Shown: positions 4,245 to 31,750, counted from the stretch's first letter. The stretch is 64,000 nucleotides of DNA from Nitrospirota bacterium (GCA_963699545.1 CAVOUE010000003.1:352001-416000), one strand, 5' to 3'. Made by a program: numbers and translations. Notes: generated from the letters alone by a model not told the origin.

Positions 4245-4844
4245 ATGTCCGCAGGAGAGGAAAAGGTGTGGGAAACCCTCGCAAGCCTCGACCCGGGTGA
4301 AGTGTGCAGGAGGACGGATTCGACCTTTGACGCGGCGTCAGGTCTCTACATGCTGAAATCCTTCGGCAGAGATTTTTCCGTTTTACCCGGGGAGAAGAAG
4401 ATATTCAGCCATTCACCTGACGGCGAGATCTTTTTGCAGAGACTTGGCTATTTTTTCAGACTCTCGGTCGTCGGGTATCTTGCCATTGCCAGGGACGTTT
4501 CTCCCACAGGACGCATTGTTACCCCGGTGAACATGAAAAGCGGACAGCTCTTTTTCAGGGGGTCACATGTTCTTCCCCTTGACAGGGTGGCTGATAGGTA
4601 CGGCAATGACAGGGAGGCGTTTCTGAAGAGAGGCAACGAACTGGGCGGGGAAAGGCTCGGGTACGGCGACGCTTCGGTAAAACTCCTGCCGCTTCCGCGT
4701 GTTGCCGTGGTCGCGATCCTCTGGACAGCGGACGATGAATTCCAGGCCAGGGCCGATCTCCTGTTCGATTCCTCCTGCGAGATCCAGTTGCCCATTGATG
4801 TTGTCTGGTCCATCGCGATGCTCAGCACGCTGGTGATGGTTTAA
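4245..4844 (+). CDS. DUF3786-like protein
   Basis: FFRGSH, LPRVAVVAILWTADDEF, LLFDSS motifs. Confidence 0.75.
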   Translation: MSAGEEKVWETLASLDPGEVCRRTDSTFDAASGLYMLKSFGRDFSVLPGEKKIFSHSPDGEIFLQRLGYFFRLSVVGYLAIARDVSPTGRIVTPVNMKSGQLFFRGSHVLPLDRVADRYGNDREAFLKRGNELGGERLGYGDASVKLLPLPRVAVVAILWTADDEFQARADLLFDSSCEIQLPIDVVWSIAMLSTLVMV

Positions 4845-6436: not shown

Positions 6437-7189
6437 ATGCCAGATAAGAAGACCATAAGAATGACATCGAAGCTCGGTTCCGAGTTCGACTCAGAAGTGA
6501 TCGCAGGGAAAGAAAAATATCTTGTGCAGACAGAGGACTGCGGGGAGAAGAGACCTCTCATCATCACCCGCATATACTTTGGCGGGCAGATCTTGCTGAC
6601 GAGGAAGACCGACTACAGCGACATGCTCGATGCCTCTGACAGGGAAGCGAAGGTGCAGGAGCTTATGCAAAAACAGCACCGTCAGACTGTAAACTCTGTC
6701 AGGGGGGGTAAGTTTAAGAGGGCAAAGACCACTGCGGAGTACATTGAAGAGGCGAAAGAACTTCTGAAGGGCAAGAACAAGAGAAGCGCCCTCAGGGTGC
6801 TGAGCGACGCAGTGGAACATTACCCTGACGATCCGTTCATCCTCTCCTATCACGGTTGCCTTGATGCTATTGCCAACAAAAACTACAGGGAGGGAATCGA
6901 TGCATGTCTTCTGGCCATAGAGGTCTTGAAGAAGAAGGTGCCCTTCGGTGAGGATTCCTTGTTCCCTGTTTTTTATCTCAACCTTGGAAGAGCCTATCTT
7001 GCGTCAGGGAAAAGGAAGGAAGCCATGACTGCGTTTAACAAGGGGCTTGCCATTGACGCGCAGAACAAGGACATTCTGTGGGAGATCAGAAAGCTCGGCA
7101 TAAGGCAGAAGCCCGTCGTCCCTTTTTTGAAGAGATCAAATCCCATCAACCGTTACATCGGCATAATGCTCCACGCAATGAAGAAGTAG
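6437..7189 (+). CDS. TPR-containing protein
   Basis: FYLNLGRAYLASG...AFNKGLAID TPR pattern. Confidence 0.75.
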   Translation: MPDKKTIRMTSKLGSEFDSEVIAGKEKYLVQTEDCGEKRPLIITRIYFGGQILLTRKTDYSDMLDASDREAKVQELMQKQHRQTVNSVRGGKFKRAKTTAEYIEEAKELLKGKNKRSALRVLSDAVEHYPDDPFILSYHGCLDAIANKNYREGIDACLLAIEVLKKKVPFGEDSLFPVFYLNLGRAYLASGKRKEAMTAFNKGLAIDAQNKDILWEIRKLGIRQKPVVPFLKRSNPINRYIGIMLHAMKK

Positions 7190-7229
7190 TCTGCTAGATT
7201 GCCCCCCGGACATTTTCCCCCGCGCTTGT

Positions 7230-7775
7230 CTATTGAGACTGAGCCATCTGCTTCAGGAGTTCCGCGATCTTCCTTGCGATCAAATCCGGCAGGAGATCCC
7301 TGTTATCAAGGGTTACCTCATGGATTTCAATATCTTCCCTCTTTTTTATCCCCAGGAGAAAATCATCGCCGCCAAAGGTGATGGTGCCAACAACGATATT
7401 CGGAGAGTCAAGGGCATGGAGTGCGGCCTGTCTGAAGACTTCAGAAAAACATTCCATCTTGCCGATCTCATCAAGTATGATGACATTCCTGCTGACGGGA
7501 GTGATGGAGGGGACGGCAATGGTCTCGATGTTCTCAATGCTTACTCCATAGCGTCTTATATGGAATCGAGACCTTATGTCCTGATGGGCAAGGTGCCCCT
7601 TTCCGCCGTCAAGGGTCCTCATCAGAAAGCCAACCCTTCGTCCTTCTACTCTCTCCTCTTCTGTGTAAAATCCATTGGCGGGAAAACCGAGATCCTGGAT
7701 CACTTTCTTGATGACGGTCGTTTTCCCTGACGAAGGCGCGCCCGTCAGGAAGATATTTTTCTTTACTGGGCTCAT
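7230..7775 (-). CDS. THEP1-type nucleoside triphosphatase
   Basis: Walker A GAPSSGKT, GFYTEE, IILDEIGKME. Confidence 0.9.
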   Translation of the reverse strand: MSPVKKNIFLTGAPSSGKTTVIKKVIQDLGFPANGFYTEEERVEGRRVGFLMRTLDGGKGHLAHQDIRSRFHIRRYGVSIENIETIAVPSITPVSRNVIILDEIGKMECFSEVFRQAALHALDSPNIVVGTITFGGDDFLLGIKKREDIEIHEVTLDNRDLLPDLIARKIAELLKQMAQSQ

Positions 7776-8023
7776 AGGAATAATTGTAACCGAAGGAGGG
7801 GATGAAGAGAAGTGAGGAAAGACCCTCCCGCTCTCCCGCTGATCGAGCCGACCTCATACTATAGAATTTAGATAGAGTGAAAGTGAAAAGGGCAAGGGTC
7901 TACTTCGCTTGATGGGATCCTTTTAATAATGCAATTACTGAAGCTTAAGTGCTGAAAGTTGTCATAATTGAAATAGCAGTGCCCTGCGCATGCCTCCCCT
8001 GGGCTTGTCATATGGGCCATATC
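7745..8023. repeat. Intergenic repeat family, copy 1 (first 75 bp identical to 9925-9999)
   Basis: Direct comparison with 9925-10139, 11152-11198 and 13675-13776. Confidence 0.85.
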
Positions 8024-8046
8024 GCGACAGGAATCTTTAAGGGAAC

Positions 8047-8961
8047 TTAGGGTTGTGTAATCTTATTGATACGTTTAGACCGCTTATGCTCGTACATTGA
8101 TTTGTCTGCTTCTTGAAGAAGTACCTCAAGGGAACATGGGCTCTGGGGATCAAAGTGTGCTGAACCCATACTAATGGAGAGCACGTATCCTCTGCTTCTT
8201 GTTGAGTTTAGAGTTTCCAGGTCATTCTGCAATCGCGACGTAAGGACGTCGCTGCGTTATCCTGAAAATGTCCGTGCGGAGAGTACGACGAATTCGTCGC
8301 CGCCAACGCGGGCACTGATGTCAGCCTCTCGATAATTTTTCCTGAGGATATTCGCGATCTCTACTAACGCCTGATCGCCCTCAATATGACCATGCACATC
8401 ATTAATTTCCTTTAGGTCATCTAGATCAGCATAAAGGATATATATCCCTTTCTTGTTTCTTTTTGCTATCTTTAACTGGTGTTCAGCCAAAGCAAACAAT
8501 CCCCGACGGTTCAAGAGTCCTGTGAGGTCATCGGTAAGCAGAAGTCCACGGGTTTGTTCTTGACCTTCGGCATGCTTTATCCTTGCCAAGAGCTCTTTTA
8601 GCGTAAAAGGTTTCTTGATAAAGTCGGACGCTCCGGCTTCAATGGCTTTATCATAATTGAAATCATCGATATGTCCGGTCATGGTAATAACGATTATGTC
8701 AGGGCTAAGTTGCTTGACTGCTGCGGTAAGTTCAAGACCTGTCATGCCGGACAGTGCAATGTCTGTTATGACAATGTCGAAAGAGGTTTTGCCTAAAAGG
8801 TTGAGAGCCTCTTCGGCATTCGGGGCAGTCTCACAGTGATAACCGTTTATCGACAAACCTTCCGTGAGCACGTTGAGCATGATTTGATCATCTTCAACGA
8901 TCAGTATCGAGCTTATTTTATCCATTCCAGGGTCAGGAGTCACTGTCGGCTTCTTCAACAA
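8047..8961 (-). CDS. Receiver-GGDEF diguanylate cyclase (frameshift near 8260)
   Basis: REC domain (IVEDD, TDIAL, KKPF), TDDLTGLLNRR, RxxD I-site, GGDEF; C-terminus continues in ORF 8047..8232. Confidence 0.88.
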
Positions 8962-9026
8962 CTCCGTGGAAATTGAGCGAAGGGGGAGTGCCCCTTTTTT
9001 CGCTTGAGACTTTTACCTCGCTGGGT

Positions 9027-9843
9027 CTAGGCTTCAGCCTTGCGGTTGTGTGCCACCAAAGATTTGACCACTTCCCATCCGATCTTATTCATTTCAGCCA
9101 TTTTAGTGATTTCCTCTAACGCGGTCCTGTTGTCGTATGAGACAGCTCGGTAAGGCCTCGGGGAGATAAGAGCATCGTATACGTCACATACAACTATTAT
9201 CTCCACCATGCGGTCTGTGAGCTGTATCCCGCGGGGCATGCCTGAACCATCTTTCCTCTCGTGATGATCCCTCGCCACTATGGCGGCAATGTTCTTTTGG
9301 ATCCTTATGAAAATAGCTGAGAAGGACATATCCTGCAGTGGTATGATGATCTATGATGCTCTTTTCAGTCCTAGTGAGCGGGGTGACTTTTTTTAAGATA
9401 TGCAAAGGAATGCAGATTTTACCAATATCATGAGTAGGGCCAGTCGAAACTTCATTTATCCACTCCGGATAATCAGGCAACAGATCTCTGGCAATCAATG
9501 CAGAAAGAGCAAATACCATAAGGACGTGGCAATATGTATGGTAGTCGTTTCTCTTGAAATAATCCAGTGACTGCAAAACGGGAATGACGAGGTGAACCTT
9601 CTCCAGCATGGTCATGACTTCTGCAATTTTCTCCTGACCAGAGAAAATCAAATCGTATGGAGGTCTGCTTATTTGACGGAGCAGGTCATGTTTTACCATG
9701 CCATATTCGAGCAATGGATAGGTTTGATAAGATGTTGTCTTGCTTGAAGAGATCAAATCCTCTAACGTCTCCGTTGAAAGGACAGTGCCGGCCGGCAGCA
9801 ACAGTTGGTTATCCAATGTGTGAACAGGGTAATGGAGTCTCAT
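9027..9843 (-). CDS. HD-GYP-family phosphodiesterase (frameshift near 9310)
   Basis: HDIGK, HHERKDGSGMPRG, DVYDALISPRPYR across two frames. Confidence 0.85.
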
Positions 9844-9924
9844 AGCATCCTTAAAAGGTTTCCGGTTCTATATTAGGCAAATGCTCGACTTTTTTCAATA
9901 GCATGATGTCAAGAAGAAAGCATA

Positions 9925-10139
9925 TCAGGAAGATATTTTTCTTTACTGGGCTCATAGGAATAATTGTAACCGAAGGAGGGGATGAAGAGAAGTGAGGAAG
10001 GGCTTTCCCGCTCTCCTGCTGACCGATTCTACCTCATATGAAGAAATTTGGGATAAAGTGGAAATGGAGGGGGCAGGGGTTCACGGCTTTTGGACGGAAT
10101 TGTATTAATTAACGAAGTTATGAAATTGAGATGCTGAAA
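9925..10139. repeat. Intergenic repeat family, copy 2, including the duplicated first 10 codons of the NTPase gene
   Basis: 9925-9999 identical to 7745-7819, then divergent similarity. Confidence 0.85.
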
Positions 10140-10179
10140 TATTAGCTCTCAGTGTATTAGAGCAGTTATGAAGACACTG

Positions 10180-10785
10180 TCAAGTGGGAGATCCCTCCGA
10201 CCGAGGCTCAGATAGCTCTTTTGCGAGTTTTTTCAGTTCTCTGAGTAGACTGGCTAAGGCGTCAAATTGTATGGATTTATCAGCGATGGAAACTCCATCT
10301 CCGCTTTGAGTCAGCATAAGCATGGGCATTCTACCTCTGACAAACCTGCCGTCCGCTATCATTTCATCCATATGCTCGACTATGTCTCGGATGTCAACGA
10401 AGGCTTTGGTATAACTGTTGATAATCTTTCTGGTTGTTCGAGGGATTGCTGGGCTTCCTTTATGACTTTTCAACCTGTCAATGAAGCGCAATGCACGCCT
10501 GACACTATGGATGCAAGTTTCCATATGTGCGACTGACCGGAAAAGAGCAGATAGGGGCAACAGTGCACCATCTCGCAGGGTTGCTACTTGCTGAAGATAT
10601 GAAGATCGAGCCTCTTCGTATTCAAAGACAGCTTTGTCCACGATTCGAATAAGATTGTGGGCGTAAAACCAGACTTGATCGAGGTCTTGCCTCCACCTCC
10701 CGATAAAAATGTTGAGGACGGTATCAGGCATTAGCGGCTCGTTGATAGAAGATAAATCGGGCATTTTAAGTTTAAGAGTGGCCAT
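10180..10785 (-). CDS. Hypothetical helical protein, candidate HEPN-like RNase
   Basis: R-x4-H motif (RDIVEH) in the C-terminal half of a helical-looking sequence. Confidence 0.5.
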   Translation of the reverse strand: MATLKLKMPDLSSINEPLMPDTVLNIFIGRWRQDLDQVWFYAHNLIRIVDKAVFEYEEARSSYLQQVATLRDGALLPLSALFRSVAHMETCIHSVRRALRFIDRLKSHKGSPAIPRTTRKIINSYTKAFVDIRDIVEHMDEMIADGRFVRGRMPMLMLTQSGDGVSIADKSIQFDALASLLRELKKLAKELSEPRSEGSPT

Positions 10786-10802
10786 TCGTCTGCTTTTTTT
10801 CT

Positions 10803-11027
10803 TTAATCGAAGCTATTTTCGTTGGGGGCGTGAGCGTTCAGCAAGTCAATTATTTCGTCCAGTTTGTCATTCATGGCCTCAAAGAATTGAGCTATAGTTG
10901 ACAGAATATACATGCCAAAAATGGCAGCAACATATAGCCGCCAAGGGTCAGGTAGTTGTGAGACGACTGCGAGGCCGAGGAAGAATACTATAAATTTCCA
11001 CCAACCTGCTTTTCTGATCTTTCCCAT
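10803..11027 (-). CDS. Small membrane protein with two transmembrane helices
   Basis: AAGGAGG RBS, two hydrophobic segments. Confidence 0.65.
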   Translation of the reverse strand: MGKIRKAGWWKFIVFFLGLAVVSQLPDPWRLYVAAIFGMYILSTIAQFFEAMNDKLDEIIDLLNAHAPNENSFD

Positions 11028-11151
11028 GCTCCCTCCTTATGCTCGAAGTTGTAGTGAACTCGGTGATGGTTGATCCATTTCTCTTCAAGTTTTTGTTTGA
11101 AATGTACAACTTCTGCGAAGTTCTGTCAACGAGAAGCAGACTATCTTGGAA

Positions 11152-11198
11152 AATTCGGGATAAAGTGGAAGGGGCAAGGGTTTACTGCGTTGGATGGC
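11152..11198. repeat. Intergenic repeat family, copy 3 (partial)
   Basis: gggataaagtggaaggggcaagggtttac resembles segments near 10050-10085 and 7870-7903. Confidence 0.65.
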
Positions 11199-11408
11199 GT
11201 ATCGTTGGTAAATCAGCTTATGTCTCTGAGACGTTGAGGACACCGACAAGTCGAGAGTTCATACGAAACCAAACTATGGCGGATTTCTGAAAGAAATTTA
11301 CGGTAACATCAGCAATCAGTCAGCCGACGGCCCTGCGGGTTGGCGACATTGCATTAGATCTCCGTAGTTCTTTTTGTTTTTCTTGGCAACGCCGCTATTG
11401 ACCATTTG

Positions 11409-13400
11409 CTAGGCAGGATTGGTTTTACCCTCCAGCCACTTACGGAAGCGCTTCGTTAACGCTATCTCTATTTGTGCACGCGTCTCTCCAACGTGACGCA
11501 GTACTCCAGCCAACTCAAGAAGAACGAAGACTACCACGCTAAGTCCGATGAAGATTCCAAAGGGGCCGCTATGAAACGGATGCATAACAATGAGCGCCAC
11601 CGCACCTGTCACAATGAAAATGGCCACTCCCCACTGCAATATATAGGACAGGCCTCTTGCCCAACTGCGGGCGCGGCCCTCCATTACGAGAGCCTGCTTC
11701 CGGGCACGTTCCGCAGATTCTCGATCAACAGTGTCTGCGCGTGCGATTGCCTCACGCTCCCTTGCTTGAGAGGCGGCAAGTTTATTTTCGTAATCTTCCG
11801 TTATTGTACGAACTCGGTCTTCAGCCTTTGCGGCGTAGCCCTCCCTGACTCTTTCGACAACTTCGTCCAAAGACGTTGCATCAATATCTTTGGAAGTGTC
11901 GTTTTCAAGCTCGGCATCTCTCAGTAGTCTATCTGACATCGAGGAAACGAGAATCGCTGTAACCTCATCGGAGTTAAGCCTATTAGATTCCTGTAATCTG
12001 TCAAGATGACGTAGAAACCTTCTCCATGTTCTCTGTGACGGCCGCAATGCAACGGAGCAGAGAGCCACGAGTTCCTGAACCTTGAGGTTCACGGCAAGAG
12101 ACGGCTTCTTCAGCCAAGCTATATTAGTGAGTGCCCGGATGTGCACAACTGGCGGAACTCCAGTTTCATGCTCATCTTCTTCCCACCAAAGTCTTGTGTT
12201 GAGAATAACGCGGGGAGAAGAGGTAGCGAAGATTGCTTTTGCGTCGTCCAGGCTTGAAGAACGGTGACCCTTCCGAAGAGTTATAGTTGCCGCGACACAG
12301 TCAACATCATGGAAAACCCGTGGCTCAAATTCGTCCTTTTTAGTCGGATCAGCAAGCCTGGCCGCGAGAGCTTTTTCTCCTGAGGTGTATTTATGTACAT
12401 GGGTTGGTGTTTGCATAATTTGGAATCCACTCGAACGGACTTCAATTTTTAACAGGGCTGACATCTCACGGACATCGCTTACCGAGTATTGCTGAGTAAG
12501 GAAATGTCGAGACATGGGGTCAGCTCGCAGCGATCGACGGCCTTCTGACGTGGCTAACCGGACTTCGAACATTGCGAGAATTCGCTGGATTTCCTGAATC
12601 GTCTTATCGAGGACTAGACATTGAACTCCATTCGCCTTTAGAACATCAACGCTTTCTCTCACGAGGGTTTGCATTGCCGTGCCCTCATAGCCAAGCGCTT
12701 GCCGAACAATGTTGCTGTCAAAAATCACGAGTAAATCCTTAAAGCGATGAGTTATTCTACTCATATCAGGCAGAAAAGCGGCGTGGTAAAGGACTAGCCC
12801 TTCGAGCATCTCACGAAGGATCTTTGCCAAAGTCGGGTCTTGATAAACACAATCGCAGATGAATGCGGCAATAGCATTCCGCTCTCTTTGCCCTCCACTT
12901 CTTGTCTCTGACAGTTTAGGAGTGCCTTCAATCAGCATTCCAACCTGCTCTTCATCGAGGAAGCTGAGCAGCATCTCCAGTGCAGCGTCTTCTGTTTCGA
13001 TTGTTATCCCGAACTTCTCGGAATAGAGTTGCAGAGCCCTTCCGAGGCGACGTTGCTCAGCTTCAATCTGTGATTTGCCACTAGCTACGTTTATCTGTGG
13101 AAGAGCTTGATTTGGATTCCGTTGATATCGACCTGCGTCACGCAGAAGGATTTTCTTTTTGATGAGTCGCTGTAACAGCGTCGTCATTGTTTGTATTGGC
13201 ATAGCGATTCCATGCCGCGTAGCCAGTGCTTCCTGTATTTCGCTGGCAATGAAGCTTCCGTTGAATTGCGTGATAACGTCGATAATCAGAGGAATGAAAA
13301 TACCCAAGTGATCGTTGCCCTCATCGAGCAGTGCTTTCAGATAGGCAACCGTCACCAACGCACCAGGTCGAGTTCTGAGATCCTCTATTGTTGTAGGCAT
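11409..13400 (-). CDS. Large hypothetical protein with PIN-like motifs, coiled coil and two C-terminal transmembrane helices
   Basis: VIFDSNIV, TIQEI and FHDVD acidic motifs; AGGAGG RBS; hydrophobic C-terminus. Confidence 0.6.
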   Translation of the reverse strand: MPTTIEDLRTRPGALVTVAYLKALLDEGNDHLGIFIPLIIDVITQFNGSFIASEIQEALATRHGIAMPIQTMTTLLQRLIKKKILLRDAGRYQRNPNQALPQINVASGKSQIEAEQRRLGRALQLYSEKFGITIETEDAALEMLLSFLDEEQVGMLIEGTPKLSETRSGGQRERNAIAAFICDCVYQDPTLAKILREMLEGLVLYHAAFLPDMSRITHRFKDLLVIFDSNIVRQALGYEGTAMQTLVRESVDVLKANGVQCLVLDKTIQEIQRILAMFEVRLATSEGRRSLRADPMSRHFLTQQYSVSDVREMSALLKIEVRSSGFQIMQTPTHVHKYTSGEKALAARLADPTKKDEFEPRVFHDVDCVAATITLRKGHRSSSLDDAKAIFATSSPRVILNTRLWWEEDEHETGVPPVVHIRALTNIAWLKKPSLAVNLKVQELVALCSVALRPSQRTWRRFLRHLDRLQESNRLNSDEVTAILVSSMSDRLLRDAELENDTSKDIDATSLDEVVERVREGYAAKAEDRVRTITEDYENKLAASQAREREAIARADTVDRESAERARKQALVMEGRARSWARGLSYILQWGVAIFIVTGAVALIVMHPFHSGPFGIFIGLSVVVFVLLELAGVLRHVGETRAQIEIALTKRFRKWLEGKTNPA

Positions 13401-13674
13401 TCGCCGATATCCTCCTAATCTACTGCAACGTTATCTGACTTCATAGAACGCAACATCTTGTATGTATAAGTTTGATTTAACATAGATTAGACGGATTCTC
13501 TTATATCATAGATTCCGTATAGCATCTATATATGCCGCACTTGGCCCATTTTTTGGCTTTTAATGTGGATAGCGCAATGTCCCCAAAGGCGACTACCATT
13601 AATAACTTACACTTTTTCGAACATTTTGAAAAGCGCGGACTTCGGGAAGGAACGATTTCTGGCGAGGGAGGCGG

Positions 13675-13776
13675 GACCCTACCGCTCTCCCGCTGACCGA
13701 GCCAGAAGGGGGAGGACAGGCGCAAAGGGCGTGCCCTGCGCGTGGCCTCCCCTAGGATTGTCATATAGGCCATATC
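13675..13776. repeat. Intergenic repeat family, copy 4
   Basis: 13675-13703 matches 7821-7849 at 27 of 29 positions; 13731-13776 closely matches 7979-8023. Confidence 0.8.
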
Positions 13777-13823
13777 TCAACGAGAGATTTGCCAGGGCGA
13801 GCACGTCTCTTAATTGAGTCGAT

Positions 13824-14226
13824 CTATAGCCCGTTTTTTTGAAGGCTCTTAAGAGTTTGCCAGGTGTTGCTGCCTGGCAGACGGCACTGCCAAAAGATCA
13901 ACCCATTTACGGAGGTGCCAGTGATCGAATGAGCTGCAGCTGATGGAGAACTTGAATCTATCGCCATTTGCGACCAATGAACCGTTGTCGACCTTGCCCT
14001 CATAAAGTTTCCCCTTGTGAGGTGCTCTGAGTTCGGTGCCATGGGGGAGAGTAATACCTCTGGAAACCCAGGGGATGCCATTAAGCTTGGCGGGTTCTTT
14101 CGTCTTTGCTAACAAAGGTAGTTCAAGGACGCGTCTAAGAACACTGTTATAGGTGTCGGCGTCATCCGTGAGTAAACTTGTCAGCTTCTTGTAGACATCG
14201 AAATCAATCGGTATGGTTGTGTACAT
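13824..14226 (-). CDS. RAMA/DUF4357-like modified-DNA reader protein (frameshift near 13955)
   Basis: LPHGTELRA..KGKLYEGKV in one frame and SPSAAAHSITGTSVNGLIFW in the next. Confidence 0.65.
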
Positions 14227-14274
14227 TGTCTTATCCTCCTTAATGTAATATATAGCGCTCAGCACTATAAGTTA

Positions 14275-14303
14275 ATAATAGCAGTAAACGGAGATGATGT
14301 CAA
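14275..14303 (-). promoter_or_regulatory. Sigma70-type promoter
   Basis: TTGACA-17 bp-TATTAT upstream of the 14226 start; imperfect inverted repeat at 14251-14269. Confidence 0.7.
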
Positions 14304-14580
14304 GAAAAAAATGCGGGGAAGATTGTCTCCAGCTTATGGCACTACGGCTCGACGCGGGTCTTATTGCAGGGAAAGCGGTTTTCCTGCAATAACGGCGCAT
14401 GTTATTGCGATCTGGAGAAATTAGATTCGCTCAGCGTCAAGAAGATTGACGGGCGGCTGGACATCTGGAATAAAAAGGGGATTACGGAATCCCGTAACCC
14501 CTTGAAACGGATCGTGAGCGCATTCCCGCAGCTTTCTGCGGGGTGAGTGAGGGAATATAATAAGGACAATTCCCTGCGTT

Positions 14581-14613
14581 AAGATACCCTGCGGTTTCGC
14601 CGCAGGGTATCTT
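14581..14613. repeat. Perfect 14-bp inverted repeat next to the tRNA-Arg 3' end
   Basis: aagataccctgcgg-tttcg-ccgcagggtatctt. Confidence 0.75.
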
Positions 14614-14623
14614 CATTTTAAAG

Positions 14624-14697
14624 TACCCCCTGCAGGAATTGAACCTGCGACACCAGGTTTAGGAAACCTGTGCTCTATCCAACTGAGCTAAGGGGGC
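14624..14697 (-). tRNA. tRNA-Arg(CCT)
   Basis: Cloverleaf, anticodon arm caggt-tt-CCT-aa-acctg; CCA not fully encoded. Confidence 0.95.
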
Positions 14698-14746
14698 GAA
14701 AGAAAGCTGAGAGCTTACAGCTGTCAGCTTACCGCAAATCAAAGAC

Positions 14747-15202
14747 CTAAGACTCCAGAATCTCGAAGACCTTCTTCACTGCGTCTTCTGCATTATCTGC
14801 CGGTATGACACCCTTGATGTCCCATGTTTCTATGCCGACTACGGGCTTTCCCATCTGGAGTGCAAAGGCTATCTCTGAAAGTGTTCCATACTCACCACCG
14901 ACGGCGATAACAGCATCCGCAGTGCGCGCTATAATAACATTTCTGCCGATTCCCAGTCCAGTTACTATGGGGATATCAATATACGCGTTTACGTCCCTCT
15001 TATGGTCCTGGGGAAGTATTCCGACGGTGAGACCTCCCTCTGTCCTGGCCCCTCTTGAGACCGCCTCCATGACGCCGGTGAGACCGCCGCAGACAACCAC
15101 GGCATCTCTTCCGGCAATCAATCGGCCGACCTGTTCAGCCTCCCTCAGAAGTCTTTTCTCGACCTTCCGTCCGCCGATCACTGATATCAGTTTCCTTGAC
15201 AT
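14747..15202 (-). CDS. LOG-family protein (TIGR00725-like)
   Basis: VCGGLTGVMEAV, RNVII, GGEYGTLSEIAFAL. Confidence 0.88.
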   Translation of the reverse strand: MSRKLISVIGGRKVEKRLLREAEQVGRLIAGRDAVVVCGGLTGVMEAVSRGARTEGGLTVGILPQDHKRDVNAYIDIPIVTGLGIGRNVIIARTADAVIAVGGEYGTLSEIAFALQMGKPVVGIETWDIKGVIPADNAEDAVKKVFEILES

Positions 15203-15212
15203 GGACACCATT

Positions 15213-15482
15213 TTACCTCTTATGTTTTCTCCTATCAAGGACTTCAGCGAGGAGGGGAAAGAGCAGGGAACCTCCAGGCAGGAAGAAGACTGCCATGACA
15301 GGAACGGCCCCCGATATGCCCCGCAGGTGGCCCTTCAGTTCACGCTTCTCCTCTCTTGTCCACGGAAGGCCTGTGTTCCGATGCTTCATGAGGAGCTGCA
15401 TAAGTCCCCGGACCTCAAGGACTTCCTTCAGGATGAACTCCCTGTTACCGGTGATGAGCCTTTTGATGTAGTTCAGCAGCAT
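15213..15482 (-). CDS. Hypothetical protein
   Basis: 89-aa ORF with LMKHRNTG..WT and LPGGSLLFP; RBS present. Confidence 0.65.
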   Translation of the reverse strand: MLLNYIKRLITGNREFILKEVLEVRGLMQLLMKHRNTGLPWTREEKRELKGHLRGISGAVPVMAVFFLPGGSLLFPLLAEVLDRRKHKR

Positions 15483-15522
15483 CTCCCCCTGAATGTACCA
15501 GGACAGTGAAAGAAAGAAGAGA

Positions 15523-15599
<77 letters not shown>

Positions 15600-15648
15600 A
15601 TAGTGAGTCCCCCAAAAGTCCGCCGACTTTTCGAGGACTCCAGCCCAA

Positions 15649-15746
15649 TGGCGGGAGCGTGTGGGAATCGAACCCACCCTGCCCGCTTTTGGCAGGCAAC
15701 ACTGGATTTGAAGTCCAGGAGGGACACCAGAACCCTATGCGCTCCC
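15649..15746 (-). tRNA. selC: tRNA-Sec(TCA)
   Basis: 98 nt, anticodon arm ctgga-ct-TCA-aa-tccag, long variable arm, GCCA end. Confidence 0.93.
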
Positions 15747-15993
15747 AGGCATACATAATACTGCATTTGCCGATGTCCTGGCAACTACGGTTTTTTGCGG
15801 GAATCGTGAGTGGCGTGAAAATATTGCGAAACGATTATAAAAGAAAGGCGGATAGAAACGAGCGGTTTAGCTGAAAGCCGAACCGGAGGCCAAATTACAG
15901 AATGAGTCGGTTCAAATCCCTGTTGTTGAACAGCCCATCTTGCCGGTAGTGCGGCTCCGGGTCTTCTCCCTGGCAGGCCCGGGAAGCACTACG

Positions 15994-17277
15994 CTACTTT
16001 TTTCCGAGGGCTCTTTCCACGGTCTTTATGGCGCAGAACTCCCCGCACATGCTGCATACCTCCGCGACAGAGGGAGGAACCTGTCCTCTCCACTCCCTCA
16101 CTCTGTCAGGGTCAAAGCTAAGGGACATCTGTCCTTCCCAGTCGAGGTTCTTCCTGCACTGAGCCATCTTCCTGTCTTTCTCGATGGCGCCGGGTATCCC
16201 TTTCGCAATATCTGCAGCGTGCGCCGCTATCTTTGAAGCGATCACCCCCTCTCTCACGTCGTCAATGTTGGGGAGGCGTATATGCTCGGCAGGAGTCACA
16301 TAGCAAAGGAAGTCAGCACCTGCGGCACCTGCAATGGCGCCTCCTATGGCTGCGGAGATATGGTCATAGCCCATCCCGATATCGGTAACCAGGGGACCGA
16401 GCACATAAAAGGGTGCGCCTTTGCAGATCTCTTTCTGCAGTTTTATGTTCAGTTCCACCTGGTTCAGAGGAACATGTCCGGGACCCTCTATGATCGCCTG
16501 GACACCGGCAGCAAGGGCTCTGTCTCTCAGTTCACCAAGGGTGACCAGCTCTTCGATCTGGCTTCTGTCCGTTGCATCCGCGAGGCAGCCGGGCCTGAAT
16601 CCGTCCCCCAGGCTCAAAGTCAGGTCATACTTTCTCGCCATCTCCAGGAGCCTGTCATACTGTTCAAAAAGGGGATTTTCCCTGTCATTATAGATCATCC
16701 ATTCAAGGAGAAAAGCCCCCCCTCTGCTCACAACGTCGAGGATCCTTCTGTCTTCCTTCAGCCTCTCTATTGCCTTCCGCGTGACACCGCAGTGGACTGT
16801 CACAAAATCCACGCCGTCCTTTGCATGTCCCTCGATCACCTCGAACAGCTTATCGGGACTCATCTCTGCGATATGTCCGTGCCTTTCGGTCGTACTCACC
16901 ACGGCTTCGTAGATGGGGACTGTCCCGACAGCAACAGGAGACTTCTTAATGAGCGTGTTTCTTAAATCTTTAATAGCGCCTCCCGTGGAGAGGTCCATGA
17001 CCGCATCAGCCCCATATTTCGCCAGGACTTCAAGCTTCTTTATCTCCTCATCATAGGAAACCCTGTCTTTTGATGTGCCGATATTTGCATTGATCTTCGT
17101 CCTCAGCCCCCTGCCGATCCCGAGGGGGGTGATATCATGGAACACGTTTCTGGTGATAACGGTTACCCCTTCAGCAATGTCGGACGCAAGCTTCTGAGCG
17201 GAGGTGCCTTCGGCCTGTGCAACCGCCTCCATCTCTGCGGTAACGATCCCTTTTCTTGCCAGTTCTATCCTTGTCAT
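15994..17277 (-). CDS. thiC: Phosphomethylpyrimidine synthase ThiC
   Basis: KINANIGTS, VMDLSTGG, VSRGG, EGPGH, CSMCGEFC. Confidence 0.96.
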   Translation of the reverse strand: MTRIELARKGIVTAEMEAVAQAEGTSAQKLASDIAEGVTVITRNVFHDITPLGIGRGLRTKINANIGTSKDRVSYDEEIKKLEVLAKYGADAVMDLSTGGAIKDLRNTLIKKSPVAVGTVPIYEAVVSTTERHGHIAEMSPDKLFEVIEGHAKDGVDFVTVHCGVTRKAIERLKEDRRILDVVSRGGAFLLEWMIYNDRENPLFEQYDRLLEMARKYDLTLSLGDGFRPGCLADATDRSQIEELVTLGELRDRALAAGVQAIIEGPGHVPLNQVELNIKLQKEICKGAPFYVLGPLVTDIGMGYDHISAAIGGAIAGAAGADFLCYVTPAEHIRLPNIDDVREGVIASKIAAHAADIAKGIPGAIEKDRKMAQCRKNLDWEGQMSLSFDPDRVREWRGQVPPSVAEVCSMCGEFCAIKTVERALGKK

Positions 17278-31042: not shown

Positions 31043-31750
31043 GTGCGCATGAAGGAAAACATTGTTGCCATAGTGCCGGCGGCTGGCCTGGGAACGAGGT
31101 TCAGCCCCGGTACCAATAAGCCCTTCCACATGCTCCTTGGCAAGCCTCTCATCGTCTGGTCCCTTGAGATCCTCGAGATGCTTCATGAGATAAAGGAAAT
31201 AATCCCCGTGCTGAAGGAGTCCGACCTGGAGACAGGTGTGGAGATCTTTGAGCGCCACAGCCTTTCAAAGGTAAAGAGGATCGCCCCAGGGGGAAAGGAG
31301 AGGCAGGATTCGGTATATAATGGCCTGAAGCTTGTTAAAGACAGGTCAAGCGTAGTGCTCATTCATGATGGCGCGAGGCCCCTTCTCGATGGCGCTATGG
31401 TGAAGACCGCTCTCAGCGCTCTCCCGGGTTTTGACGGCGTGATCGCAGGTGTTCCGGTAAAGGACACCATAAAGGAAGTGCAGGACAGCGTGGTGAAGAG
31501 AACGTTAAGACGTGAGACGCTGTGGGCTGTCCAGACGCCGCAGCTCTTCCTTTATGATTCCCTCATGAAGGCATACGATGCAGCGATGGAAGAGAATTTT
31601 TATTCGACTGACGATGCTGCGTTGCTGGAACGAAGCGGGGGCAGGGTCAGGGTGGTTATGGGGTCGTATTCCAACATAAAGGTCACCACGCCGGAGGATA
31701 TACCCTTTGCAGAACAATTGTTGCGGGAGAGGATGAAGCCCGGAGAATGA
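31043..31750 (+). CDS. ispD: MEP cytidylyltransferase
   Basis: AAGLGTR, RQDSV, IHDGARP, QTPQ. Confidence 0.95.
   Translation: MRMKENIVAIVPAAGLGTRFSPGTNKPFHMLLGKPLIVWSLEILEMLHEIKEIIPVLKESDLETGVEIFERHSLSKVKRIAPGGKERQDSVYNGLKLVKDRSSVVLIHDGARPLLDGAMVKTALSALPGFDGVIAGVPVKDTIKEVQDSVVKRTLRRETLWAVQTPQLFLYDSLMKAYDAAMEENFYSTDDAALLERSGGRVRVVMGSYSNIKVTTPEDIPFAEQLLRERMKPGE

Follow-up and report, generated by a model that had tools for sequence, protein, structure and literature searches.

Relics of small tRNA-targeting Rep-Int elements as the probable source of a cassette-like gene array in a Nitrospirota bacterium

How does a row of accessory genes that share one orientation, with a short repeat of one family behind each of them, come to lie beside a tRNA gene where no intact recombinase gene is seen? 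This question is raised by a stretch of 64,000 nt from a Nitrospirota bacterium (GCA_963699545.1, CAVOUE010000003.1:352001-416000), referred to here as the window, which corresponds to C3:352001-416000 of a 3.04-Mb assembly of 13 contigs that is 87% complete. The interval between an NTPase gene and tRNA-Arg(CCT) in this window was described in an original prediction as an integrase-free, cassette-like array and a gene-capture hotspot. Comparison with Nitrospirae/Thermodesulfovibrionales metagenome-assembled genome (MAG) records and with a set of 317 genomes of the same order points elsewhere: positions 7823-14622 are most probably a composite decayed island, formed from several copies of small elements that carry a rolling-circle replication gene (rep) and an integrase gene (int), target tRNA 3' ends, and are called Rep-Int elements below. 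At the level of sequence, the comparison establishes that two repeat blocks (B and C) and an integrase tail are homologous to parts of intact elements, that a congener has the site empty, and that cargo varies among relatives.

The insertion and its coding relics

In the same-genus genome G001, the corresponding site is empty, with 57 nt from the NTPase start codon to the tRNA-Arg 3' end. The alignment of G001 flanks the insertion at window positions 7213-7793 and 14623-15190 (BLAST), and the spacer homology continues to ~7822 in local alignment, placing the left insertion edge at ~7822/7823. Because this site is empty and both flanks align, 7823-14622 is an insertion, which starts exactly at the repeat block designated A. 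Its host left flank comprises the NTPase gene (PF03266; 7230-7775, minus strand; Pfam E 5.2e-42) and the spacer upstream of it (7776-7822), which is homologous to the whole empty-site spacer of G001 (BLAST and local alignment to L031 3906-3952). On the other side lies the integration target, tRNA-Arg(CCT) (14623-14697, minus strand), whose 3' part serves intact elements in G074 and G178 as their attachment (att) direct repeat. It is followed by tRNA-Pro and then tRNA-SeC (tRNA search and Rfam), and an Rfam search at E ≤ 1 over 6500-16000 returned these three tRNAs plus noise and nothing else.

The original prediction was right that all supported genes between the NTPase gene and tRNA-Arg share one strand: every open reading frame (ORF) with family or homologue support in 7776-14622 is on the minus strand. 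It was also right about the repeats, four related copies of which were recovered by repeat finding and direct reading, at 7745-8028, 9925-10139, 11151-11231 and 13662-13782. They are mosaics of three blocks, A (at 7827, 10007 and 13681), B (at ~7872, 10035 and 11142) and C (at 7979 and 13731). The second copy reaches further left than had been described; its left part (9925-10029, plus strand) repeats the initial 31 nt of the NTPase gene, together with the 47-nt spacer upstream of that gene, before entering block A, and 9925-10022 is 94.9% identical to 7745-7842 over 98 nt. With copy 1 as query, the whole assembly gives matches at E < 1 solely within C3:359.7-365.8 kb. The repeat family is confined to this locus, as opposed to the genome-dispersed copies with terminal inverted repeats expected of an insertion sequence (IS) or a miniature inverted-repeat transposable element (MITE), and the earlier view that the repeats are not dispersed ends of this kind is upheld.

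Block B is, in all three copies, what remains of a rolling-circle rep gene, namely its last ~30 codons. The clearest copy is the third (11142-11237, plus strand), a rep 3' relic that includes the stop codon: amino acids 236-267 of the Rep of G065 match 11142-11231 with 69% identity (tblastn, E 1.7e-8), and the relic ends in GKFGIKWKGQGFTALDGVSLVNQLMSLRR and a stop, where intact rep genes end in FGIKWKWKGQGFTALDG and, further on, a C before the stop. The Rep proteins of G065 and G074 also match 10035-10134 and 7872-7934 in tblastn. The former is the second copy (10035-10134, plus strand), which has one frameshift, translates as KKFGIKWKWRGQGFTAF/LDGIVLINEVMKLRC followed by a stop, and is 89% identical over 47 nt to the rep gene of G074. 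The latter falls in the first copy (7872-7955, plus strand), found by blastn to the rep 3' ends of G065 and G074, where decayed last codons ending in KGQGSTSLDGILLIMQLLKLKC and a stop are preceded by in-frame stops.

A second kind of coding relic lies next to the tRNA. Positions 14437-14510 (plus strand) hold the 3' tail, or last ~25 codons, of a tyrosine integrase gene, which matches amino acids 344-374 of the integrase of G074 (BLASTP, E 1e-5); the DNA aligns with the integrase 3' ends of G074, G178 and G041/G177, and G012 carries the same remnant at 88% identity. The earlier statement that no recombinase is visible therefore holds for intact genes, none of which, and no PF00589 match, is found in the island interval, but not for this tail. 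PF00589 has six matches in the genome, the nearest on C3 at 130 kb, ~230 kb from the locus at 360-366 kb. A PF23343 Rep is missing from the assembly, and the closest integrase homologue there, on another contig, reaches 31% identity.

Read on the plus strand, the insertion runs A1-B1-C1 and then the GGDEF and HD genes; the copy of the NTPase 5' end and spacer, A2-B2 and then the 201-aa and 74-aa ORFs; B3 and then the 663-aa ORF; A4, a hairpin, C4 and then the DUF4357 gene; and the integrase tail followed by the tRNA. The order is that of intact elements, namely rep, C, cargo, int and tRNA, repeated and truncated.

Intact and decaying elements in relatives

The intact elements are found in G074 (4653 bp, att repeat of 44 nt, target tRNA-Arg(CCT)), G178 (5092 bp, att repeat of 51 nt, neither repeat within an intact tRNA) and G065 (3778 bp, att repeat of 29 nt, target tRNA-Gly(CCC)). 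A tRNA 3' part, repeated directly and perfectly, marks both ends of all three, and each carries a PF23343 Rep, then block C in the strand of rep, then cargo or a small ORF, and finally a tyrosine integrase gene with its 3' end at att. The layout may be summarized as att repeat, rolling-circle rep, small ORFs, motif C, cargo or small ORF, tyrosine integrase, and att inside the tRNA. The Rep proteins of G074 and G065 also match phrog_3419 (rolling circle DNA replication initiation), that of G178 matches phrog_10883, of unknown function, and a weak match of Rep to RepSA (E 9e-5) is below the cut-off. Among the ORFs of the intact elements, Pfam detects no conjugation or mobilisation gene and no FtsK/TraB-like transfer, Kor or Pif functions. 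The label "integrase-free" is thus not borne out, as intact relatives carry their own tyrosine integrase and its 3' tail persists beside the window tRNA. Rep relatives occur in 20 of the 317 genomes of the order, with C-terminal-only fragments at 9 places in 7 genomes. This very small Rep-plus-integrase family in Thermodesulfovibrionales, together with the motif that it shares across phyla (see below), appears undescribed within Rfam, four protein libraries and a limited literature search.

Some features of the element ends deserve mention. In G178 (L126), the perfect 51-nt repeats at 4368-4418 and 9460-9510 match the tRNA-Arg 3' part; since the 19-kb stretch around the element contains no tRNA gene by ARAGORN, the two repeats are fragments, with the target tRNA absent or located elsewhere. 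Two intact elements carry a tandem repeat, ATGGACACCTGT-ATGGACACCTGG, inside each end (L127 991-1017 and 5395-5421; L126 4555-4578 and 9398-9421), with one copy forming the last codons of the integrase and the other just upstream of rep. These repeats are candidates for arm-type binding sites of the integrase, and the window retains a single degenerate copy at 14457-14467. A search for the integrase arm-like repeat ATGGACACCTG gave 21 matches against 16.6 expected, which is uninformative.

Relatives present the elements at different stages of decay next to tRNA-Arg(CCT). G219 has an intact integrase, block C and a rep relic (amino acids 204-275), whereas G222 and contig L067 have an integrase relic, C and a rep relic; in L067, an intact orthologue of the GGDEF gene of the window is located between C and the integrase relic. 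G041/G177 have a frameshifted integrase beside HicAB. In G092, an integrase relic and a rep relic are beside the tRNA, and further rep-relic pieces are 22 kb away. Over ~24 kb of this genome (G092:C1 ~737-762 kb, L165/L166), rep 3'-relic pieces are seen at three places, two of them adjoining, along with the integrase relic, making this a second, larger array of the same kind. In G012 (G012:C14 31145-43676, L036/L168), an ORF of 2862 aa on the rep strand is located between a rep relic (31145-31234) and C (41998), and on the other side of C a Fic-domain gene is found between C and an integrase relic, next to tRNA-Arg.

From these states a course of events may be proposed for the window. The ancestral elements would have accumulated by successive integration at tRNA-Arg, and deletions would then have removed each int-att-rep junction between neighbours, leaving cargo and backbone relics. 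The mobility genes would have been lost in the process, except for three rep genes as their last ~30 codons and one integrase gene as its last ~25, with block C persisting twice and block A three times. The appearance of genes each followed by a repeat would arise because the cargo remains on the strand opposite to rep and int. Accretion and decay is a published model for tandem and composite islands, as these are treated in part of PMC5704250. Since no tRNA-Arg 3' fragment remains in 7000-14560, successive site-specific integration is a step that we infer. The second repeat copy would stem from a duplication within the chromosome, or else from recombination involving a closely related locus, because it carries 31 nt of the NTPase gene plus the spacer. 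Copies 1 and 2 have the same A|B junction and a 95%-identical host flank, with B parts that are much more diverged; this combination suggests a later duplication, or recombination with a closely related chromosome anchored in the tRNA region. The array now looks immobile, because there is no att duplicate in the window and no Rep or close integrase homologue in the genome; the tRNA 3' 35-mer, with ≤3 mismatches allowed, occurs in the window solely in the tRNA itself.

Blocks A and C and the weighing of explanations

Block C (GGCTTGTCATATAGGCCATATCTCAMCG) contains a core, TTGTCATAT-AGGCC-ATATCTCAA, that is an imperfect 9-5-9 palindrome. With ≤3 mismatches, the 19-mer taken as the core occurs twice in the window versus 0.06 times expected (100 shuffles). 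Copy 1 (7979-8028, plus strand; core 8005-8023) has only the 3' half of the adjoining hairpin (repeat finding and folding). By repeat finding, reading and folding, copy 4 (13662-13782, plus strand) consists of block A (13662-13703), a strong hairpin (13709-13752; -20.3 kcal/mol, z -2.86) and the block C core (13758-13776); it shares 85% identity over 124 nt with L082, where an integrase follows downstream.

The core was scanned in public collections and in the 317 genomes. The pattern with 2 mismatches was deemed noisy over the 317 genomes because a reversed-pattern control also matches often, and the only hits used were those with extended flanks (ccctgggc-core-tcaacgg). They lie near tRNA-Arg(CCT) in G012, G041/G177, G074, G180, G219, G222 and two metagenome contigs, near tRNA-Gly(CCC) in G065, near tRNA-Met in G186 and near tmRNA in G023; the genes that block-C loci target or adjoin include tRNA-Leu(CAA) in addition to these four. 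Rfam recognizes tRNAs alone in 20 related loci, and the motif C string has no match in a literal literature search. A third C-like site in the assembly, C12:154398, is shared by three congeners and was set aside as a chance or coding match, being inside an ORF.

Conservation of this motif is sharply bounded. In at least 12 loci, the conserved sequence ends abruptly at ATATCTCAACGG with variable DNA beyond. The core is also shared by 12 aligned contigs, from Verrucomicrobia/Lentisphaeraceae MAG records where titled. It should be noted that these contigs were picked by a 19-nt pattern that fixes all but two core positions, but both unfixed positions and five flanking columns outside the pattern are also invariant in them. 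In all eight loci where both are seen, C shares its strand with rep or the rep relic, and in 5 of the 9 loci that were folded, a strong hairpin of differing sequence stops 5-8 nt short of the core. The distance to rep varies: C is ~120 nt upstream of the rep start in L038, a Verrucomicrobia contig, and 0.35-6 kb downstream of rep in Nitrospirota elements. Other Rep homologues in two Verrucomicrobia genomes have no C motif within 1.5 kb. Block C is a conserved internal non-coding motif of the elements, also present in Verrucomicrobia/Lentisphaeraceae MAG records, and together with its adjoining hairpin it is probably the double-strand origin of Rep, which its anatomy fits. Iteron-like direct repeats of ~18 nt (GGTCNAAATTTGTCTTTG, 2-3 copies) were observed 20-200 nt to the right of C in the Planctomycetes-Verrucomicrobia-Chlamydiae (PVC)-type contigs L045, L049, L062, L066 and L085.

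Block A is represented in copy 1 by 7823-7849 (plus strand), with two direct TCCCGCT repeats (repeat finding and direct reading); an inverted GCGGGA is found upstream in copy 4 and in the copies of relatives. The block is located 30-280 nt to the left of C in G041/G177, G179, L077 and L082, and no convincing likeness to a tRNA 3' end is apparent by eye. Block A is predicted to be a further backbone segment.

Several observations weigh against a composite island formed by accretion and decay. The host flank in copy 2, that is, the NTPase 5' end plus spacer, is not predicted by simple accretion and needs a second process. In 7000-14560, blastn-short reveals no tRNA-Arg 3' fragment that could stand for an internal or distal att. 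Block A is absent from every intact element searched, and it is to the left of B in copies 1 and 2 and to the right of B in G179. Almost the same codon begins each of the three B relics, which may go back to one multiplied deletion derivative instead of three independent decays. Among ~12 loci of the Verrucomicrobia/Lentisphaeraceae type, Rep is within 2 kb of C in just one independent locus. The frameshifts of the HD and DUF4357 genes described below could be assembly errors, the stop in the GGDEF gene being a substitution, and with an assembly that is 87% complete, a trans-acting element could be unassembled.

A different account would take the array at face value, as an integrase-free, integron-like series of cassettes that stack or swap through the repeats by means of a trans-acting or unknown recombinase. 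The co-orientation of the cargo genes, the differences in cargo between relatives, the sharp boundary at ATATCTCAACGG in at least 12 loci and the palindromic C core all accord with it. Yet block B is a coding relic and no site, and C lies within elements equipped with an integrase and tRNA-derived att sites of their own. Moreover, C is present in just two of the four copies, and no attC-like R''/L''-L'/R' pairs are seen on inspection, in agreement with the earlier remark that the repeats lack clear attC symmetry. The repeat family is nowhere else in the genome, the nearest integrase-family gene is ~230 kb off, and no joints are found in the run contigs. For the last point, two sequencing runs containing 5-6% of the words were used, and their contigs cover parts of the GGDEF gene, the HD gene, the 663-aa gene and the tRNA flank; these thin data gave neither joints in reads or contigs nor a bridging contig, and the excision or exchange that had been envisaged thus found no support. 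Taken together, a cassette array of this kind is quite improbable. What survives of the hotspot idea is the variable cargo by tRNA-Arg(CCT) and the empty site in G001, but not cassette exchange via the repeats, B being a rep relic and C an element motif; likewise, block C alone gives a sharp edge between conserved and variable sequence, while B is a rep 3' end and not a site.

Block C itself invites other explanations. Cargo might have been acquired by Rep, with C as the rolling-circle nick site and foreign DNA entering through illegitimate joining or read-through in the manner of IS91/ISCR or Helitrons. The variable DNA starts within a few nucleotides of the core, on one side only, the strand relation between C and rep is fixed in 8 of 8 loci, C is ~120 nt upstream of the rep start in the Verrucomicrobia contig, and a varying hairpin is just 5' of an invariant motif, as is described for double-strand origins in part of PMC2440964. 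Against this, in Nitrospirota elements C is found 0.35-6 kb downstream of rep, most C loci of other phyla have no Rep nearby, and ordinary hotspot recombination also yields variable cargo, which makes Rep-driven capture unlikely. The broader proposition that C is a cross-phyla nick site of PF23343-type Rep, that the slot is filled by Rep-mediated illegitimate joining and that the small Rep-Int elements are a rolling-circle gene-capture platform is doubtful to the same degree; if true, decayed Rep-Int arrays would seed defence and signalling islands beside tRNA genes in Nitrospirota and other phyla. It is extremely improbable that C is a chromosomal dif site duplicated by elements that use host Xer, as in integrative mobile elements exploiting Xer (IMEX). 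Such integration would agree with the palindrome-like core, its conservation across phyla, its 1-2 copies per genome and the lack of an integrase beside C in the window, but in relatives C adjoins different tRNA/tmRNA genes and lies inside integrase-bearing elements. The proposal is refuted by the proximity of the locus to dnaA (C3:323514-323996, 36-43 kb away), and block C was rejected as a chromosomal dif, with the locus at 360-366 kb being near the origin and not the terminus. The cumulative GC-skew minimum is at ~315 kb, ~45-50 kb away, and the island is judged origin-proximal because this minimum and dnaA lie ~30-40 kb to the left of the window start.

Cargo, known systems and significance

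If the island is a set of decayed Rep-Int elements, its genes would be their cargo, and they do sit in the cargo slot of the elements. The genes that adjoin the same side of C vary by locus and include those for GGDEF, DUF4357, Fic, HicA and PLDc_N proteins as well as unnamed ORFs. The cargo thus varies between relatives within a defined slot, and other relatives hold different cargo at tRNA-Arg(CCT), so that gene content is not invariant, as the original prediction required.

Three of the seven cargo ORFs of the window, all on the minus strand, are disrupted. The first encodes a REC-GGDEF response-regulator diguanylate cyclase (8047-8961; Pfam) with an in-frame TAA; it is 82% identical to an intact 295-aa orthologue of L077, and the stop falls inside the alignment. 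The HD_5-domain gene (9027-9843) is frameshifted near 9295-9300, two overlapping ORFs matching consecutive parts of PF13487; at the break, beside a T4 run, a related soil-metagenome contig is without 1 nt at 9300. The DUF4357 gene (13824-14265) is split over two frames, and its C-terminus gives the RAMA-like match that had been predicted, although at 27.6 bits versus a Pfam cut-off of 38.4 the match is sub-threshold. The ORFs of 201 aa (10180-10785), 74 aa (10803-11027) and 663 aa (11409-13400) are intact and belong to no family, and contigs in sequencing run X1 are identical to the 663-aa ORF or differ by one letter. The labels "PIN-TM" for the 663-aa protein and "HEPN-like" for the 201-aa protein were not reproduced: neither has a PIN or HEPN Pfam match at E ≤ 0.01, and their Atlas neighbours are unnamed hypothetical proteins. 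PADLOC and NCBIfam give no confident defence assignment for the unnamed cargo.

Other sequences at the locus are of separate character. Between the integrase tail and tRNA-Arg, a dispersed insert of ~116 nt (14507-14622), absent from 6 aligned relatives, contains two hairpins, one of which is a perfect 14-bp inverted repeat at 14581-14613. It has 7 other copies in the assembly, 72-85% identical and 57-125 nt long, on contigs C1, C3, C5, C6 and C13, and looks like a dispersed repeat of the MITE or repetitive extragenic palindromic (REP) type, unrelated to blocks A, B and C. An identical stretch of 13 nt, ATGATGTCAAGAA, stands upstream of both the HD gene (9903-9915) and the DUF4357 gene (14294-14306), and may be a further remnant of the backbone or a coincidence (E 0.007, the search being small). 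An SLOG/LDcluster4 (TIGR00725) gene at 14747-15238, between tRNA-Arg and tRNA-Pro, is counted as part of the host's tRNA cluster, outside the island, because it is in the same place in G001, G012 and G041/G177.

The closest named class to the Rep-Int elements is that of the integrative and conjugative elements of actinomycetes (AICEs). The part of PMC2440964 that deals with AICEs of the pSAM2 type describes a tyrosine integrase and a rolling-circle Rep, integration at tRNA 3' ends via identity segments of tens of nucleotides, and remnants without the 5' part of rep, all of which have counterparts here. AICEs differ in the host phylum and in size (10.9-17.3 kb for the three AICEs that its abstract names, versus 3.8-5.1 kb), and are defined by Rep, Int and an FtsK/TraB transfer gene, whereas Pfam detects no transfer-gene family in the ORFs of the intact relatives. 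The window island itself resembles the composite islands of cis-mobilizable elements (CIMEs), integrative and mobilizable elements (IMEs) and integrative and conjugative elements (ICEs), as far as the relevant part of PMC5704250 presents them, in its tRNA 3' end site, tandem element-equivalents, loss of integration and replication genes and retention of cargo, and in that its relatives show every intermediate state. In that source, a CIME lacks int and transfer genes and by definition keeps both attL and attR; the window holds no second att copy, and genes for conjugation or mobilisation are not detected in the parent elements. Intact tRNA-targeted elements have attL/attR repeats and a functional integrase, which are missing from the window, while the repeats are present in G074, G178 and G065.

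Integron arrays are alike in that their accessory genes point the same way, that a short repeat of one kind comes after every gene, and that content varies between relatives. They differ in that no IntI, attI or Pc is found here, the repeats are relics of genes or origins, and only two of the four have a palindromic core; inspection of the four copies revealed no GTTRRRY/RYYYAAC pair, as is characteristic of attC. For block C, the nearest likeness is to the double-strand origins of rolling-circle replicons, in which, according to the part of PMC2440964 that covers them, a conserved nick site lies beside a less conserved hairpin or binding region. The invariant short sequence by a variable hairpin and the link to an HUH-type Rep are in common with these. 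The nick site of pC194 given there is CTTGAT; the block C core contains CTTGTCAT and is not the pC194 consensus, and its position relative to rep varies.

Thus, the island is not an integron, a strict CIME, an IS/MITE family or an IMEX; its manner of working is that of tRNA-targeting elements that combine Int with a rolling-circle Rep, from which it derives. Relic islands of integrative elements at tRNA genes are an ordinary and known route of genomic-island formation. The locus illustrates that an apparent recombinase-free cassette array can arise from the remains of ordinary integrative elements, which calls for caution in scans for gene capture. In addition, the ~28-nt non-coding motif C, if it is the Rep origin, would be a marker for such elements and their relics in metagenomes.

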